Shown here: positions 31,584-40,237 of the stretch, piece by piece | Position numbering within the stretch: the stretch's first letter is position 1 | Layout of the letters: each line of letters begins with the position of its first letter | Origin: a virus | Taxonomy: Duplodnaviria; Heunggongvirae; Uroviricota; Caudoviricetes | Length of the DNA stretch: 64,000 bases | IMG/VR virus record: IMGVR_UViG_3300011904_000029 | Location: 70,312-134,311 of that record | Reading direction: 5' to 3' (one strand) | Program-made: the position numbers and the translations under genes | Notes under the pieces: model-generated | Seen by the model: only the letters and a program-made list of their open reading frames with translations | The model's database searches: none | Told to the model about the DNA's origin: nothing

Positions 31584-32546
31584 ATGATGAAAATTAGTAA
31601 GAGACTTAGTACTAATATTGTTCGAGAATTTGTAGAGTCTTTTGGTTATAAGTTACTTACTGAGTTTGAGTCATCCTCTGTAAAGATTAAAGTATCTTGT
31701 CCTTTAAACCATGTTTATGAAGTCAAATTTAATAACTTTAAACAGGGTAGAAGATGTAAAGAATGTTCATACTTAGAAAAGGCAAAAAAATTTAAACATT
31801 CTTTAGAACATGTGAAAAAAACGTTTTTAGATAATGACTGCATTCCATTGTTTTCAAATTACAAAAATGCTAAAACACCTCTATTATATATGTGCAATTG
31901 CGGTAATAAATCAACTATAAGATTTAGTGATTTCCAAAGAGGTAAACGCTGTAAATTATGTATGGGGGAGAGACTATCTGATAGATTCAGATTTTCATAT
32001 TCTTATGTAGAAAAACTTTTTGAAATAAATGATTGCAAATTGTTGTCAGATAAATACATAAATGGAAAAGAGCATTTAGATTACGTTTGTTCATGTGGCA
32101 ATAGAGATGTTATTTCATTTGAAAAATTTAAACTTGGGCAAAGATGCTATGAATGTAGGAACAATAAAATAAGTAAATCTTTAAAAGGAAGAAATTTCCC
32201 AGAACGTAGAGGCGAAAATCATCCAAACTGGAAATATGATAAATCTGATGAAGATAGAGTAAAAGAAAGAAAGTTTTATGACTATCATCAATGGAGAGAA
32301 TCGGTATTTGAAAGAGATAATTTCACCTGCCAGTGTTGCAGTAAAGTTGGTCATGAGTTAAACGCACACCATTTAGATGGTTGGAACTGGTGTATTGAGA
32401 AAAGGTTAGATGTGGATAATGGGATAACATTATGTAAAATTTGTCATGATGAATTCCATGAAATGTATGGTAAAGGAAACAATACTAAAGAACAATTCAT
32501 GGAATTTTTGTTCAATAAAAGGAGGAAATTGTTTTGTCTGATTTAA
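31584..32546 (+). CDS. free-standing HNH homing endonuclease with repeated Zn-binding modules
   Basis: RDNFTCQCC...AHHL...DNGITLCKICHDEFH; three C-x-C/H...RC-x2-C repeats; no flanking intron motifs. Confidence 0.85.
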   Translation: MMKISKRLSTNIVREFVESFGYKLLTEFESSSVKIKVSCPLNHVYEVKFNNFKQGRRCKECSYLEKAKKFKHSLEHVKKTFLDNDCIPLFSNYKNAKTPLLYMCNCGNKSTIRFSDFQRGKRCKLCMGERLSDRFRFSYSYVEKLFEINDCKLLSDKYINGKEHLDYVCSCGNRDVISFEKFKLGQRCYECRNNKISKSLKGRNFPERRGENHPNWKYDKSDEDRVKERKFYDYHQWRESVFERDNFTCQCCSKVGHELNAHHLDGWNWCIEKRLDVDNGITLCKICHDEFHEMYGKGNNTKEQFMEFLFNKRRKLFCLI

Positions 32547-33420: not shown

Positions 33421-34101
33421 ATGCCTAAAGAGTGGTATCTATCTGATTCAGATAAATATTTGAGTGGATATGAAAACGAAGAATTTACACTTAATGCCAC
33501 AAGTGCTTTTGATGAAATCCTCCTTAATTCACCAGAGTCTTATGATGTATTAATCAATGATGTCCCAAACAAAGCCATTATACAAACAAAATCTAGCGAT
33601 ATTGCAAGAAAAATTTTAACCAGGATTGGCGACATTTCTTGTGGAGATATTGTTGATTATAAAAAAAATAAATGGCTTGCTGTTGATTTCGCTGACGACA
33701 ATAGAATGTACGAATCAAGCATCATTAAGCTATGCAATACCACATTTCATTTAGAGCTAGATAAAACTACTGTTTTATTAAGAGATGAGAACGGCAATCC
33801 AATACTTGATAATCATGGCAGACCAATCTATGAAGAAGTTCCAAATACTAAAGATGTTCCTTGTGTAGTTGAAACAAAGTATTACTTTAATAACCGCAAT
33901 GAACAAATCACACTACCTGAAGATCGGGTAATGATTTCTATTCAGTATCAAGAGGCAAATAATTTAAAAGAAAATGCCGAGTTCAATCTTTATAATTCTC
34001 GTTTCTCAATTAAGTTCATTGATTATACCAAAGTAGTAAATGACAAGGGAGTTATGATCATCACTGGTGAAAGGGTGATGAATAAAGATGGGAATGTATA
34101 A
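33421..34101 (+). CDS. head-closure/neck protein (YomX-like)
   Basis: Gene order and size. Confidence 0.55.
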   Translation: MPKEWYLSDSDKYLSGYENEEFTLNATSAFDEILLNSPESYDVLINDVPNKAIIQTKSSDIARKILTRIGDISCGDIVDYKKNKWLAVDFADDNRMYESSIIKLCNTTFHLELDKTTVLLRDENGNPILDNHGRPIYEEVPNTKDVPCVVETKYYFNNRNEQITLPEDRVMISIQYQEANNLKENAEFNLYNSRFSIKFIDYTKVVNDKGVMIITGERVMNKDGNV

Positions 34102-34594
34102 AAATATACAGGATATCTTGAAAGCAGTACGATTTGATGAAGAGCTTTTAAGGTTGCTTTACTATAAACCCGAAGACTATCTATCTAAAACACTTGACCC
34201 TCTTGATGAAAGACTTCCTAATATACTGGATATGGATTTAGGGAAACAGTGGGAAATTAGAGATGAAAGGATAATGGTTACTCCTAAAGACGATGACCTT
34301 ACGAATAAAAGGATTTGTAGAATATTTGTTTATTTTGGTGACAGATCCCCCCAAAGAGGGAATTACAAAATGGCTGAGCAGGATTTGATTGTAGATGTCA
34401 TTTGTCATTCTGATTTTGAGAATGGTGATATTAGGTCAACAAGAATCGGTGATAGACTTAACCAGATATTTGCATTAAGTAATGTAACAGGTGTAGGTAA
34501 GATGAATTATGTGAGAGGCAGACTGCTTAATAGAGTACCTTCTCAATATGTAGGGTTTCAGCATATCTATTCATTAGGGAGCACAAAAAAGTGA
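34088..34594 (+). CDS. tail terminator/neck protein (YomW-like)
   Basis: Gene order and size. Confidence 0.55.
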   Translation: MGMYKNIQDILKAVRFDEELLRLLYYKPEDYLSKTLDPLDERLPNILDMDLGKQWEIRDERIMVTPKDDDLTNKRICRIFVYFGDRSPQRGNYKMAEQDLIVDVICHSDFENGDIRSTRIGDRLNQIFALSNVTGVGKMNYVRGRLLNRVPSQYVGFQHIYSLGSTKK

Positions 34595-35316
34595 GTTTGA
34601 ATAATATACTTGGCAGACCTGTCGATGTTCCAGAGGTAGGAAGTGTATTCCCGGTAAAGGTTAAAGATTGGGATATATTTGAAAAAAATGTAAATATTCT
34701 TATGTTATCTAAAAAAAGTCTTCCATTAGAGATTGAGAATGATGATATCACACTTCTAGACAGGATTGTATTTGGCCTTAAAGATGAAAGTGTAATTAAT
34801 TCAATTTGTACGATTTTTAATTTGGTATTCAATACAAAGGGATTTGCGATTACTGGGACGCCAGAAAGCTATTTTCTTTCTGATAGTGAGAACATTTTTA
34901 TTGAACCTCTACTTTATGACGATATTAGAAGAATAATATTACACCAAAATCTAATATTGGAGCCGAAAATATATAAAGATAAAAGAATGCAAGAATGGGC
35001 ACAAAAAGCATTGGAAGTCAGAAATAAGGATGCTGCCAATATTACACTAGAAGATATGATTACTACCGTAGCTGTTATATCTGGTAAGCATTATTGGGAT
35101 ATTGAAGAATATACGATGTATCAACTTCAAAGCGAATTTAGAAGGATTAATAAAATAAAACATTATGACACCACTTCCATTATGTTCGCAAATCCTTATG
35201 CTACAGATATTAAATTGGATCACTTTGCTGAATATCTTGATTTATATGCTGACCCATATAAAGACCTGTTTAAGAAGAAAGAAAAATTAAATATAACTAA
35301 AGCACTTGGAGAATAA
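34591..35316 (+). CDS. tail morphogenesis protein (YomV-like)
   Basis: Gene order; GTG overlapping the previous stop. Confidence 0.55.
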   Translation: MSLNNILGRPVDVPEVGSVFPVKVKDWDIFEKNVNILMLSKKSLPLEIENDDITLLDRIVFGLKDESVINSICTIFNLVFNTKGFAITGTPESYFLSDSENIFIEPLLYDDIRRIILHQNLILEPKIYKDKRMQEWAQKALEVRNKDAANITLEDMITTVAVISGKHYWDIEEYTMYQLQSEFRRINKIKHYDTTSIMFANPYATDIKLDHFAEYLDLYADPYKDLFKKKEKLNITKALGE

Positions 35317-35336
35317 AATATTTAGGAGGAAAATCA

Positions 35337-36092
35337 ATGGCAGTTATTGCAGATGTTTTCGAAGTTATCTTAATAGATAATCAAAATGATGTGATTGGTA
35401 CAACTTCTCTTCAAGATTCAAATATTGATGTGAGTGTACAAGAGCAGGATGTTCGAGGAGGTCGTGGGAATCAGCTCTATGGAGTTCTTCACTCTGATAG
35501 GGATATTAATATTGATATGAATGATATCCAGTTTCGTTTTGAATGGTTAGCAAAACAATTCGGACAAGATGTTAAAACTGGAGCAGGAAAAGCCTACGCT
35601 ATGCCTAAATGGTATCTGGCTACTGAAGATGTTGATAGTACGGTCATTACCTTAGATAAAGAGCCATCTTCTGTCAGTGAAATGGCCATCTATAATGAAA
35701 ATGGGGAAAGAATTACTGGATTTACAGTGCAAGGCTCGAAAGTGGATCTTACAGACGCAACTCCTACTGTTGCTATTGGTGATGAGGTGGAAGTAAGAAC
35801 ATTTATCTATGATACACCTCCGACTACTCAAGAATTTAAAATTGACAACTCAGTATTCGCTAAGGGGGTCAAGGCTGTCCTTGAAACTGTAGAGGTCGAT
35901 GAGACTGAGGAAGTAGTTACTCATCAAATTCAATATGAATTCTATAAAGCTGTACCTACTGGAAACTTTACAATTAACACTGCCTCTGAAAGATCAGCGC
36001 AAGCACAGGCGACAAACCTTCGTGTTGTCAAGCCAAAAACTTCTACAGAGGTTGGTGTAGTAAAAAGAATTCCTGTTTCCCAATTGCCCTAA
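35337..36092 (+). CDS. major tail (tube) protein (YomU-like), ending in CCC-TAA
   Basis: 251 aa; gene order; terminal CCC-TAA +1 shift site. Confidence 0.75.
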   Translation: MAVIADVFEVILIDNQNDVIGTTSLQDSNIDVSVQEQDVRGGRGNQLYGVLHSDRDINIDMNDIQFRFEWLAKQFGQDVKTGAGKAYAMPKWYLATEDVDSTVITLDKEPSSVSEMAIYNENGERITGFTVQGSKVDLTDATPTVAIGDEVEVRTFIYDTPPTTQEFKIDNSVFAKGVKAVLETVEVDETEEVVTHQIQYEFYKAVPTGNFTINTASERSAQAQATNLRVVKPKTSTEVGVVKRIPVSQLP

Positions 36093-36156
36093 TCAGCCCC
36101 ATAGTCTCAAAATAAGCTCCAAGACAGATAGGAGTGTTGCCCTATCTTGGGAATAA
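36087..36156 (+). other. programmed +1 frameshift site and 21-aa extension NQPHSLKISSKTDRSVALSWE (FN3 strands A-B)
   Basis: CCC TAA at 36087-92; the +1 frame is open to TAA 36154-56 and reads as an FN3 N-terminus. Confidence 0.75.
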
Positions 36157-36192
36157 GTGAGACGTGGGGTATTCAAGAGGAGGCAGATTTTT

Positions 36193-36894
36193 ATGAGCAT
36201 CGAGTACATAGTATATAGAAATGGCTCTAAGATTGCAGAGGGGTTAAAGAATAAGTCATATACTGATGATGGTCTTTCCCCTAATACTTCTTATACATAC
36301 CAAGTAAGTGCATTTGAGAACGGCAAGGAAAGTAGTCTTTCTGATCCTATAACGGTAAAAACAGATTATAGTCATCCAACTGAAGTCAACGTCTCTCCCT
36401 CCACTATTTCTATCAATGTAAATGATAAGCGAAAATTGGCTGCTACTGTAATACCATCAACTGCTAAACAAGAAGTTGTTTGGTCAAGTACTAATCCTGA
36501 TATTGCATCAGTAAGTGCATCAGGAGAAATCCAAGGGTTGTCACCAGGAACCACAGAAATTATTGCAAAGGCAAAAGATGATAATAGTATAGCTGGTAGC
36601 ACATCTGTCACAGTCATACAACCAGTAACAGGTGTTTCCTTAAATAAAACATCAATTAGTCTAGAAATTGGTAGTAGTGAGAAACTTACTTCAACAGTGC
36701 AACCATCGAATGCTTCTAACAAGAAAGTTACTTGGTCATCATCTGCAAATGAAGTTTGTACCGTAAGTAGTGATGGACAGGTAACTGCTGTAGGAGAGGG
36801 AGAAGCTACAGTAACAGTAACTACGGATGATGGAAATAAGACTACATCTTGTGTGGTCACTGTAATTGATATTGAGCCAAGTGAGGGTGAGTAG
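36193..36894 (+). CDS. tail-associated Ig-domain protein (partial FN3 plus two Big_2 domains)
   Basis: GAGGAGG RBS at 36177-83, ATG at 36193; EYIVYRNG...YTDDGLSPNTSYTYQVSA; two Big_2 repeats. Confidence 0.85.
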   Translation: MSIEYIVYRNGSKIAEGLKNKSYTDDGLSPNTSYTYQVSAFENGKESSLSDPITVKTDYSHPTEVNVSPSTISINVNDKRKLAATVIPSTAKQEVVWSSTNPDIASVSASGEIQGLSPGTTEIIAKAKDDNSIAGSTSVTVIQPVTGVSLNKTSISLEIGSSEKLTSTVQPSNASNKKVTWSSSANEVCTVSSDGQVTAVGEGEATVTVTTDDGNKTTSCVVTVIDIEPSEGE

Positions 36895-36925
36895 GCGATT
36901 GCCCTGCTTGCCTTTTTATTTTTTT
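36893..36925 (+). terminator. intrinsic terminator
   Basis: aggc...gcct stem followed by a long T-run. Confidence 0.55.
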
Positions 36926-36947
36926 AGGAATAAAAGGAGGATTATTT

Positions 36948-37385
36948 ATGAAACTTAAAATTAAAGCTAATCAAATAAAAGGATTTGCAGATTTCCTAAT
37001 GTCACTTGAACTAAAAGGTACTAAGAGCAGAATGAGAGTACGCTTAGTTAAAATGCTAGATGAAAAATTAGAATCGATTCAACAGGAATATATTGATCAT
37101 GTAGTAAAAGAACATTGTCAATTAGATGAAGAAGGAAACCCAAAAACTAAGGATGTAAATGGACAGAGGCACTGGGATATCAAGGACGACAAACAAGAAG
37201 ACTTCAATAAAGATTATTTAGAACTCTGGAATGAAACTCATGTTATCGAGGGTGAAGATAATAAAGTGATGTTTGTATCTGTTAGAGAATCTGTATTGAA
37301 TTGTGATAAAGCATTTAGTGGACAAGAAGCTCTTATGTTTGATCAATGGTGCGATCTAGTTGAAGCTATGGATGAAGATAATTAA
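36948..37385 (+). CDS. DUF1617-like (YomQ-like) protein
   Basis: Family pattern (FL..L.LKG..SR.R..L.K.L) and position. Confidence 0.55.
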   Translation: MKLKIKANQIKGFADFLMSLELKGTKSRMRVRLVKMLDEKLESIQQEYIDHVVKEHCQLDEEGNPKTKDVNGQRHWDIKDDKQEDFNKDYLELWNETHVIEGEDNKVMFVSVRESVLNCDKAFSGQEALMFDQWCDLVEAMDEDN

Positions 37386-37420
37386 ATAAATTTATATTGA
37401 TGACGAATAGGAGGATGAAA

Positions 37421-38412: not shown

Positions 38413-39441
38413 GTGAGTAAGAAGTTTCAGCGTGTAAAGTATTTTACAAAAGAGAAAAAAGATAAAATTAATCCTGATAATATTAAGCTCTATGATAAAT
38501 ATTTACGATCATCCACTATAAAAAATAAAGATGTGAAAAATACTACATATAAGGTTTATCAAAATTATATGTCTCATTTTTTAGTTTATCTATCAGAAGA
38601 GTGGGATAATGTAGGGCTATATGATGAAGAATTTATGGAAAATGCAGTAGATATTATGGAAGGGTTTATTGGATTTTGCCAAGATGTTTTACACAATAAC
38701 AAAAAAGTAATAAATACTAAAATTAGTACAGTTAGTTCTTTTTATATGTGGAGCTTAAAGCGTGGATTAATAGACAGACATCCGTTTGACAAAAAGCTTG
38801 AAAGAATGAAAGGTGCTAATGATGAAAAAATAAAAGAATCATATTTTCTCACTGAGGATCAGATTAAGGAAATTGAAACAGCCTTACTAGACGAAAAGAG
38901 ATTTGATTTCCAGGATAGGCTTTTATGGAACATAGCTTTAGATTCAGCAAATAGAGTTGGTGCTATAGCTAGATTAACCATTTCCTCTCTTAATTTAGAT
39001 GAGATGGTATTTGAAGATATTAGAGAGAAACGTGGAAAGATTGTAGAAGTTGCCTTTGAAGAAGACACTAGAGAGCTTATTCGGCAATGGCTAGAGATGA
39101 GAAAAGAAATGGATAATTTAGAGGTAGATTCTTTTTTTGTTACCAGATACAGAAATGAGTGGCAGCCAATGTCATATGGAACCCTACAAGCACGTATAAA
39201 GAGAATTGGTCAAGCTATTGGCATTGATGATTTTTACTTTCACACTATAAGAAAAACAAAACTTAACTTACTATATGAACAAACTGGAAATATTGACATG
39301 GTGGCTGAGTGGGCGAATCATGAGTCAATTGAGACTAGTAAACGCCACTACATAAAACCTAAATCGAAAGCTGAGTTAAGACGTGAAATGAGAAAGTTGA
39401 TTAAAGAAAATAAAGAAAAGAATAAAGAAGGTTCACAATAA
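38413..39441 (+). CDS. tyrosine recombinase within the tail module (YomM-like)
   Basis: Catalytic R (SANRVG), H-x-x-R (HTIR), H (ANHES) and Y (RHYI). Confidence 0.85.
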   Translation: MSKKFQRVKYFTKEKKDKINPDNIKLYDKYLRSSTIKNKDVKNTTYKVYQNYMSHFLVYLSEEWDNVGLYDEEFMENAVDIMEGFIGFCQDVLHNNKKVINTKISTVSSFYMWSLKRGLIDRHPFDKKLERMKGANDEKIKESYFLTEDQIKEIETALLDEKRFDFQDRLLWNIALDSANRVGAIARLTISSLNLDEMVFEDIREKRGKIVEVAFEEDTRELIRQWLEMRKEMDNLEVDSFFVTRYRNEWQPMSYGTLQARIKRIGQAIGIDDFYFHTIRKTKLNLLYEQTGNIDMVAEWANHESIETSKRHYIKPKSKAELRREMRKLIKENKEKNKEGSQ

Positions 39442-39722
39442 AATTACACTTTTATTTATCAAATAAATACAAAAAACCTTTTTGAGTTGAGTATCTGAGT
39501 TAATCGGATACTCAGTTGAGATTGGTTACGTGTTGAAAATCTAAGGGAATGTAAGCTAATATAAGAGAGAAAATCCGAGATTTTATGAAATAATCCGAAA
39601 TTAAGGGAAATATAGCGATAAAATATGGTATAATCGAGACAACAAAGGGTAATACTGCACATATACATGTTCTAAGTGGGGTGATGTATATGTGTGACAA
39701 GAAAAGTGAGGAGGAGAAAGAT

Positions 39723-39848
39723 ATGGCTCTACCAAAAGAACAAATATTAGAGAAAAAGGAGAGTCTTGATATGAAAAAAATTGATGCTATCTTAAAACGG
39801 GGAATCAAGCGATACGATAAGGCATTAGCCAAGCTTGCTAAAAATTAA
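39723..39848 (+). CDS. minimal Phd-like antitoxin, 41 aa (MALPKEQ...RYDKALAKLAKN)
   Basis: Missed by the ORF track; GAGGAGG RBS; TAATG coupling to doc; RYDKALAKLAK C-terminal helix. Confidence 0.7.
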   Translation: MALPKEQILEKKESLDMKKIDAILKRGIKRYDKALAKLAKN

Positions 39849-40237
39849 TGACCGAAAAACTAACACCTGAAGAGTTACGATATGTCCATCAAAAAATGCT
39901 TGATTTGTACGGAGGTCTTCCAGGAGAAAAGGAACCTGGGATGATGGATTATATTTGTGAAAAGCCATTCTTTTTTGGTGCTTATCCTACCTTGTTTGAA
40001 AAGGCTGCTGTAATAATGATTGCAATTGCAACCGGTCATTATTTCGTGGATGGAAACAAGCGAACTGCAGCCATGTCTACTTACGTTTTCTTGATGAAAA
40101 ATGAATTTGAGTTAATTGTATCGGATGATGATCTATTTGAAATGGCAGTGCGTGTGGCTCAAAAAGAAATTAATCAAGAGTCACTAACCCAATGGCTATC
40201 GGATAATTCTGTTCAAGTTGATATAAATGAATTATAA
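39848..40237 (+). CDS. doc: Doc/Fic-family toxin
   Basis: HYFVDGNKRTA Fic motif; 129 aa. Confidence 0.9.
   Translation: MTEKLTPEELRYVHQKMLDLYGGLPGEKEPGMMDYICEKPFFFGAYPTLFEKAAVIMIAIATGHYFVDGNKRTAAMSTYVFLMKNEFELIVSDDDLFEMAVRVAQKEINQESLTQWLSDNSVQVDINEL

Follow-up and report, generated by a model that had tools for sequence, protein, structure and literature searches.

A fibronectin type III domain apparently split between a putative +1 frameshift tag on the tail tube gene and a separate Ig protein in an SPbeta-like prophage

The window analyzed here, a stretch of 64,000 nucleotides, is part of a 137-kb IMG/VR provirus record, and its structural genes resemble the SPbeta Yom families YomX, YomW, YomV, YomU_Tube, YomO and YomN as they are found on the close relative L006. 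All features described below lie on the plus strand. The tail tube gene (35337–36092) encodes in the zero frame a 251-aa protein of the SPbeta YomU type. It matches the PDB tail-tube chains 8k98_A and 9jgh_A (E 1.5e-10) and the virion structural protein family phrog_2729, it shares 26% identity (E 5e-14) with the L006 protein bearing PF27173 YomU_Tube, and its gene is placed between YomV-like and YomO-like genes. A literature search for YomU gave only unrelated papers, and a profile search of genome contigs with the tube alignment gave three distant matches only. In L002 and L003, whose tubes are 72% identical to that of the window, the whole module described in this work is absent; the tube gene ends there with ...PVA TAA TAA and a terminator.

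The 3' end of the tube ORF reads TTG CCC TAA, and its last two codons form a shifty stop at 36087–36092 (CCC 36087–36089, TAA 36090–36092), which we propose as a +1 frameshift site. From 36091 the +1 frame reads NQPHSLKISSKTDRSVALSWE, 21 codons corresponding to strands A and B of an FN3 domain, and is terminated by the TAA at 36154–36156 (tag ORF 36091–36156). A long RNA hairpin (36096–36170; MFE -31.4 kcal/mol, z -3.8) encloses the tag-coding sequence. The tag stop and the next ATG, at 36193, are in the same frame with 36 nt between them; these 12 spacer codons read VRRGVFKRRQIF and include a Shine-Dalgarno sequence, GAGGAGG (36177–36183), situated 9 nt upstream of the ATG as read from the sequence. 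The ORF that starts there (36193–36894) encodes a putative 233-aa Ig decoration protein, of which residues 1–57 (36193–36363) correspond to FN3 strands C to G and residues of about 64–142 and 144–222 to two Big_2 domains. The terminator scan found a terminator-like hairpin with a T-run downstream of the Ig ORF (36883–36925) and none between the tube gene and the Ig ORF. A tube subunit extended by the tag would measure 272 aa (251 + 21), and a hypothetical double-recoded fusion 518 aa. The preliminary description had read the junction in the same way, from the CCC-TAA end and the 21-aa A-B peptide to the GAGGAGG-led ATG that opens the remaining FN3 strands and the two Big_2 domains; its positions hold to the base, Pfam and the sequence bear out its domain assignments, and the lengths of the shifted form, the Ig protein and the fusion agree with ours.

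When the tag and the Ig ORF were joined with the stop written as X, the Pfam fn3 profile (PF00041) aligned over positions 2–83 of 84 with 30.6–35.3 bits, the gathering cut-off being 25 bits. The Ig ORF without the tag aligned over positions of about 42–83 only, with 18.5–23.3 bits, under that cut-off, such that all seven strands of the FN3 domain are covered solely when the two parts are joined. The window tag itself lies on profile positions 2 to about 30, and in three cassettes (the window, L005 and L030) the tag supplies the missing positions 2 to about 40. The rest of the 233-aa protein matches Pfam Big_2 (PF02368) in two stretches with 116–117 bits, and the alignment to positions 2–148 of the phrog_341 profile begins at its residue 2. 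No solved structure was found that matches the FN3 part starting at strand C, the PDB matches covering mainly the Big_2 region, and a DNA-level search of the phage collection recovered Big_2 similarity only. The tag, on the other side of the split, is recognized above chance. A tag profile built from other phages, with the window left out, found the window peptide as its sole match (E 1.1e-5) among the 5119 six-frame pieces of the 137-kb genome; no second tag copy was found in this genome, whose capsid is accordingly untagged. In addition, pN/pS was 0.60 in the tag frame and higher in the two others (0.89 and 1.33), a modest contrast measured over 63 nt, and codon third positions vary most in the tag frame. 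These substitution patterns suggest a modest coding signature, weakened by the dual constraint on peptide and RNA that is discussed below.

The closest known parallel is SPP1, in which gp17.1* arises when a +1 frameshift at CCC-UAA extends the tail tube protein gp17.1 with an FN3 domain (Auzat et al., 2008, cited in PMC5221750). In the SPP1 record (NC_004166), gene 17.1 ends with GCT CCC TAA and 17.1/17.1* are annotated as a joined CDS; the +1 reading begins NAPQNL... and runs as NAPQNLTYTATTDSVTVKWD-AVEGADS-YNVYRG..., that is, a homologue of the tag joined to strand C by a B-C loop of the ordinary kind. The likeness had been drawn from the outset, on the grounds that the SPP1 major tail protein gains a whole FN3 domain at CCCUAA, and the record upholds it with the same site, unsplit, and a homologous peptide. 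Thus, as in SPP1, the tube gene of the window ends with CCC-TAA, is continued in +1 by a homologous peptide (NAPQNLTYTATTDSVTVKWD in SPP1, NQPHSLKISSKTDRSVALSWE in the window) and has a hairpin right after the stop. In SPP1, strands C to G belong to the same polypeptide, within an 87-aa extension, whereas in the window the reading is broken off past strand B and a second protein, with an RBS of its own, takes up at strand C and has two Big_2 domains in addition; a complete FN3 fused to the tube in the SPP1 manner is absent in the window, where the +1 frame is closed after 21 codons. By its sequence, therefore, the window cassette is the split counterpart of the validated SPP1 shift site. Another unsplit +1 fusion occurs in L045.

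More generally, major virion genes may carry at their 3' end a programmed shift that provides a minority of the subunits with an Ig-like surface domain (Fraser et al., 2006; Lactobacillus phage A2 and T3; PMC5009743), and such appended modules are described as mobile and variable in shift direction (PMC5009743). In those cases the whole domain is fused, whereas here two strands would be fused and the remainder would be a free protein. Listeria phage PSA makes Tsh/Tsh-L and Cps/Cps-L by a +1 shift at CCC-UGA (Zimmer, 2003, via PMC5009743) and shares with the window a shifty-stop +1 site on the proline codon that ends major virion genes, as well as the shortness of the extensions. We considered the PSA extensions as tags and rejected them: neither is FN3-like, the first being an acidic tail and the second helical and SAP-like, and an ORF for a partial FN3 is absent.

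We then asked how widely this arrangement is distributed. IMG/VR was searched with an alignment of Ig proteins that start at strand C, the three upstream frames of each match were translated and the nucleotide context was tabulated. We define the split-FN3 cassette by a slippery site at the stop of a capsid or tube gene and a tag of 20–28 codons that ends just past the B-strand Trp and is followed by a stop. The window shows this slippery site, tag and stop, together with an RBS and start codon of the partner's own near the strand-C tyrosine and a hairpin that begins 1–3 nt past the stop. In 20 of 20 distinct +1 cassettes, each a separate lineage, the upstream gene ends exactly with CCC|TAA. 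The +1-frame tags have 20–23 codons with the pattern N/K-x-P-x-N-L ... T-D-x-x-V-x-L-x-W-(E/D/S), and end at the B-strand Trp plus 1–3 residues with TAA, TAG or TGA. A spacer of 18–57 nt follows, with an AAGGAGG-like RBS in all relatives, and the start codon of the Ig ORF stands 3–5 residues upstream of the strand-C motif Y-N-V-Y-R-D-G, such that the split falls in the same B-C loop in every lineage. The conserved internal stop and RBS, which the preliminary description had proposed to look for among homologues, are accordingly found in about 20 lineages. The carrier differs: the tube-borne cassettes are those of the window and L006, most others sit behind the major capsid gene, and in the ten loci tested the carrier gene encodes the major capsid protein (PF05065 or PF25209). 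In the Saphexaviruses of Enterococcus (BC611, SAP6 and others), the capsid gene has at its end the classic heptamer G_GGA_AAG, where a -1 shift leads into an equivalent tag, and in EG103P3 the capsid gene is followed by the +1 form.

Several phages bear tags that have no partner gene beside them or that are translated in frame. In the Virgibacillus prophage L007 and in L008, a second CCC-TAA cassette ends the tail-tube gene (PF06199), with the tags NKPVNINVDTITDKSVSLSWY and NKPVNVNADTVTDNSVSLSWT, respectively. This tail tag is followed by a terminator and a chaperone gene only, and the lone Ig ORF of each genome lies behind the capsid gene; consequently, the tail tag could be completed in trans only. 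In phiEf11, the capsid gene encodes a 21-aa A-B-like tag by a -1 shift at A_AAA_AAA, the major tail protein ORF15 carries a similar tag in frame at its end, and ORF16 begins at strand C and bears Big_2. The window resembles phiEf11 in having the 21-residue A-B tag and a Big_2 ORF that starts at strand C, and differs from it in the shift direction and in the carrier protein. The phiEf11 virions show two capsid bands about 3 kDa apart, for which a 21-aa extension by frameshift was proposed (PMC5221750). The mass spectrometry described in that report missed some peptides, and its account of the extension links it to neither ORF16 nor FN3 (PMC5221750). In L049, three consecutive ORFs are joined by two in-frame splits, each with an A-B end before a C-G start, and in the high-GC phage L037 the gene of an 88-aa membrane/coiled-coil protein that ends with A-B shares an ATGA overlap with that of a 417-aa protein whose first strand is C.

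The comparison with L006, an independent NCBI assembly, gives the cassette a sharp left boundary. From base 36087, the first C of CCC, to 37417 the window and L006 are 88.9% identical at the nucleotide level, whereas their tube genes cannot be aligned as DNA and their tube proteins are 26% identical; it follows that the same cassette serves different tubes and that its left boundary lies at the shift site. From the CCC to the ATG, 103 of 106 nt are identical, including the TAA, the RBS and the ATG. The Ig ORF is less conserved between the two than the cassette, and its dN/dS of 0.19 indicates that the gene is live; purifying selection also acts on its residues 1–57.

Taken together, these observations are best read for this locus as fold complementation in trans, a reading in which we have fairly good, though not full, confidence. 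Most ribosomes would terminate the tube protein at CCC-UAA, and a fraction would slip +1 on the proline codon, probably aided by the hairpin 3 nt past the stop, and append the 21 residues of FN3 strands A and B. The next gene would be co-transcribed and started separately from a strong RBS, its 233-aa product being an FN3 domain of strands C to G, deprived of the two strands that complete it, followed by the two Big_2 Ig domains. The tag of the shifted tube subunits would then enter the incomplete sandwich, with B beside E and A beside G, such that the Ig arm is held non-covalently on a sub-stoichiometric set of tube subunits. In short, this SPbeta-like prophage probably slips ribosomes to add a 21-residue tag to some of its tube subunits, and the separate protein of strands C to G and Ig domains probably snaps onto it; the Big_2 arm could serve as a weak surface adhesin. 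Completion in trans, with Ig domains docked only on the shifted tubes, had already been suggested for this locus, and it seems to us the best fit of the comparative evidence: a split conserved with differing stops, spacers and frames, tags without partners, in-frame tags and a predicted complex with canonical FN3 geometry.

The hairpin opens a different explanation, in which the RNA element comes first: it would be a terminator, an attenuator, an mRNA stabilizer or a regulator of Ig-ORF translation, the tag would be a fossil of an SPP1-like fusion, rarely or never made, and the Ig protein would attach or act otherwise. The structure is certainly well kept. A long hairpin folds in 18 of 18 distinct +1 cassettes and in SPP1, with free energies of -22 to -39 kcal/mol and z of -2.9 to -6.8 against shuffles in the 18 cassettes; its 5' arm begins 1–3 nt past the UAA (3 nt in the window) and its 3' arm ends just beyond the tag stop, positions 36096–36110 pairing with 36158–36170 in the window. 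The hairpins were compared by per-sequence MFE folds and a shared-register table, which reveals compensatory changes at several pairs, such as CG to TA and AT to GC. RNAalifold on a MAFFT alignment of the 18 cassettes gave no pairs, the 3' arms being out of register. A U-run follows the hairpin in about half of the relatives, where it may double as a partial terminator, and the cassette shared by the window and L006, with its 3 differences in 106 nt, is more conserved than the Ig ORF. Moreover, as the tag-coding RNA is also constrained as a hairpin, the argument for the tag from selection is weakened; the invariant CCC codon of the tag proline falls in the outer helix, and part of the sequence conservation of the cassette could be at the RNA level. 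Against the primacy of the RNA, the FN3 A-B pattern (Pro3, Leu6, alternating hydrophobics and the invariant Trp) is kept while the hairpin sequences differ, the invariant CCC-TAA matches the proven SPP1 site, the in-frame tags of phiEf11 ORF15, L049 and L037 are constitutively translated, the partner without a tag misses two of seven FN3 strands, and the window hairpin has no U-run. We therefore regard this explanation as unlikely. On the model of PSA cps and antizyme (PMC5009743), the hairpin would be suitably placed to stimulate the +1 shift at the shifty stop.

It is also conceivable that the tag is made and that docking takes place elsewhere, after a neutral fission of the gene, with an Ig protein that binds the virion through Big_2 or is no virion component. 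Free Ig-like decoration proteins such as T4 Hoc bind capsids in other ways, a Hoc-like chain is among the PDB matches of the Ig protein, and L039 and L040 have an ORF starting at strand C with no tag detected, such that ORFs of this kind may sometimes do without one. To this we oppose the cut in the same B-C loop in every lineage, the tags retained on genes with no adjoining partner, the purifying selection on residues 1–57 of the Ig ORF and a model that yields a complete FN3. For this model we used the first 62 residues of the partner, with an alignment of 18 rows, and a +1-frame peptide of 30 residues, the last 21 being the tag and the first nine an out-of-frame filler. Tag and partner scored an ipSAE of 0.80 in three runs against 0.20 for the best control, passing a mark that is attained by 58 of 80 solved complexes and by 2 of 110 mismatched pairs. 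The contacts agree by at least 92% between runs and the partner pLDDT is at least 79. In the predicted complex, peptide residues 22–29 (DRSVALSW) pair with partner residues 21–28, which is the canonical B-E pairing, and strand A is near partner residues 53–57, in the canonical A-B-E / G arrangement. The model speaks for the compatibility of tag and partner, not for binding, and likeness to solved FN3 folds may explain why the mark was passed. An AlphaFold2 run on a single read-through chain (stop as Gly, alignment of 3 rows) was uninformative, with a mean pLDDT of 46. On balance, docking elsewhere appears to us about as improbable as the primacy of the RNA, and completion of the FN3 by the tag remains the preferred reading.

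A third route would combine the +1 shift with read-through of a leaky TAA 36154, resulting in a 518-aa fusion of tube, FN3 and two Big_2 domains. The preliminary description had kept this double recoding as its alternative, and one stop is indeed all that separates the tag from an in-frame Ig ORF in the window and in L006. However, among the 22 cassettes having an adjacent Ig ORF, nearly half have it in a frame other than that of the tag, for which reason shift plus read-through is not the conserved mechanism; several of the spacers contain extra stops, every cassette has its own RBS and start codon, and the spacer codons VRRGVFKRRQIF are unlike an FN3 B-C loop. Efficient read-through of UAA is not expected in bacteria. 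We thus hold double recoding to be very improbable as the main route, although a rare read-through product is possible in the window, the tag and the Ig ORF being in frame. Finally, that TAA 36154 was introduced by faulty sequencing, or by a recent nonsense mutation, into a once-continuous +1 FN3 extension, a reservation raised at the outset for which one could invoke the unsplit relatives SPP1 and L045, is hardly credible, since the same TAA is present in the independent assembly of L006 and the same split, each time with an RBS and a start codon, in about 20 other lineages, which rules out a private allele.

The completion of an incomplete Ig-like sandwich by strands of another polypeptide is familiar from the donor-strand complementation of chaperone-usher pili, and from engineered split Ig-like domains, among them SpyTag/SpyCatcher and FN3 fragment complementation, all of them tight and specific. 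The arrangement proposed here differs from these systems: pilins lack one C-terminal strand and polymerize, and the SpyCatcher bond is covalent, whereas in the window two N-terminal strands would be provided on a C-terminal tag dosed by frameshifting. To our knowledge, frameshift-appended Ig domains have been known on virions for some 20 years, always as fusions, and in the literature we found no phage virion described as having an FN3 or Ig domain in two parts. Three elements of this locus are new: the carrier is a tube of the SPbeta type, the recombination boundary coincides with the shift site, and the homology to the SPP1 site, hairpin included, is made explicit. Beyond this locus, and with somewhat less assurance than for the window itself, we favor the view that Gram-positive phages possess a natural and portable tag-and-catcher, in which a frameshift-dosed 21-residue A-B tag, encoded within its own shift-stimulating hairpin and borne by the capsid or the tube, captures adhesin arms encoded by separate genes by completing their FN3 domain; it would move between unrelated carriers with the breakpoint at the shift site, and one partner could serve both head and tail.

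If true, the split would amount to a novel mode of building virion decorations. With only a small tag on the carrier, the assembly of head and tail would be spared the burden of a bulky domain, and the adhesin would be added afterwards, in a dose set by the frequency of the shift, with one adhesin gene decorating several structures. Many short and puzzling frameshift extensions would find an explanation in it, as would many mis-annotations of small Ig ORFs as "major tail protein" (phrog_341), and it would offer a natural non-covalent pair of peptide and domain for phage display or virion engineering. The RNA that encodes the tag would, in turn, be a clear case of overlapping constraints on peptide and RNA structure at a recoding site.

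Relative to L006, a close relative from an independent NCBI assembly that carries the same tag/Ig cassette, positions 34594-36086 of the window are a mosaic replacement. Neither the tube gene nor the YomV-like gene in this segment resembles L006 at the DNA level, and the sequence on either side (33724-34594 and 36087-37417) is about 88% identical between the two. The 88.9% block common to the window and L006 (to 37417) includes a 145-aa gene 3' of the Ig ORF (36948-37385; phrog_1401), whose nearest neighbours by atlas features are DUF1617 clusters (score 0.96). As this gene lies inside the shared block and is missing from L002 and L003, the relatives without the cassette, its sequence context suggests that it travels together with the tag/Ig cassette.

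A tyrosine-recombinase-like gene (38413-39441; phrog_216 and phrog_1 integrase, E ~1e-28) lies within the tail gene block, and L002 has a homologue at the equivalent position. An HNH endonuclease-like ORF (31584-32546; phrog_559) is inserted amid the head genes; L006, too, has an HNH-repeat ORF, located between its YomO and YomN genes. At 39681-40237, a 55-aa ORF is followed by a 129-aa ORF in which, from the translation, ...HYFVDGNKRTAAM... reads as a Fic/Doc-type motif; the two may constitute a Phd/Doc-like toxin-antitoxin pair inside the prophage.

Split FN3 domains were also observed in other arrangements. In L007 (a Virgibacillus prophage) and L008, a second CCC-TAA tag cassette closes the tail-tube gene (L007:5337-5405 and L008:4390-4458), and the sole Ig partner gene sits 3' of the capsid gene. 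An ORF starting at strand C (MNTYNIYQDG...) is found in loci L039 and L040 (~1480-1520), immediately 3' of a capsid gene ending in ...TTAP and two stop codons; no A-B tag was recognisable there in any frame. The GenBank names of such small strand-C-start Ig ORFs among the phage collection matches vary between 'major tail protein', 'chitinase', 'Ig-like virion protein' and 'hypothetical', even for those 3' of a capsid gene, and the family seems to correspond to phrog_341 'major tail protein'.

In a high-GC phage (L037:1238-2754), FN3 strands A-B terminate a protein of 88 aa whose N-terminus is hydrophobic and which contains a coiled coil. An ATGA overlap joins it to a 417-aa protein, which begins with strand C and continues through a Pro-rich linker into what looks like a beta-helix. 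In locus L049 (55-1977), two in-frame split FN3 domains link three consecutive ORFs, each with A-B at the C-terminus of one ORF and C-G at the N-terminus of the next; these ORFs could possibly form a plug-and-socket chain that is free of frameshifting.
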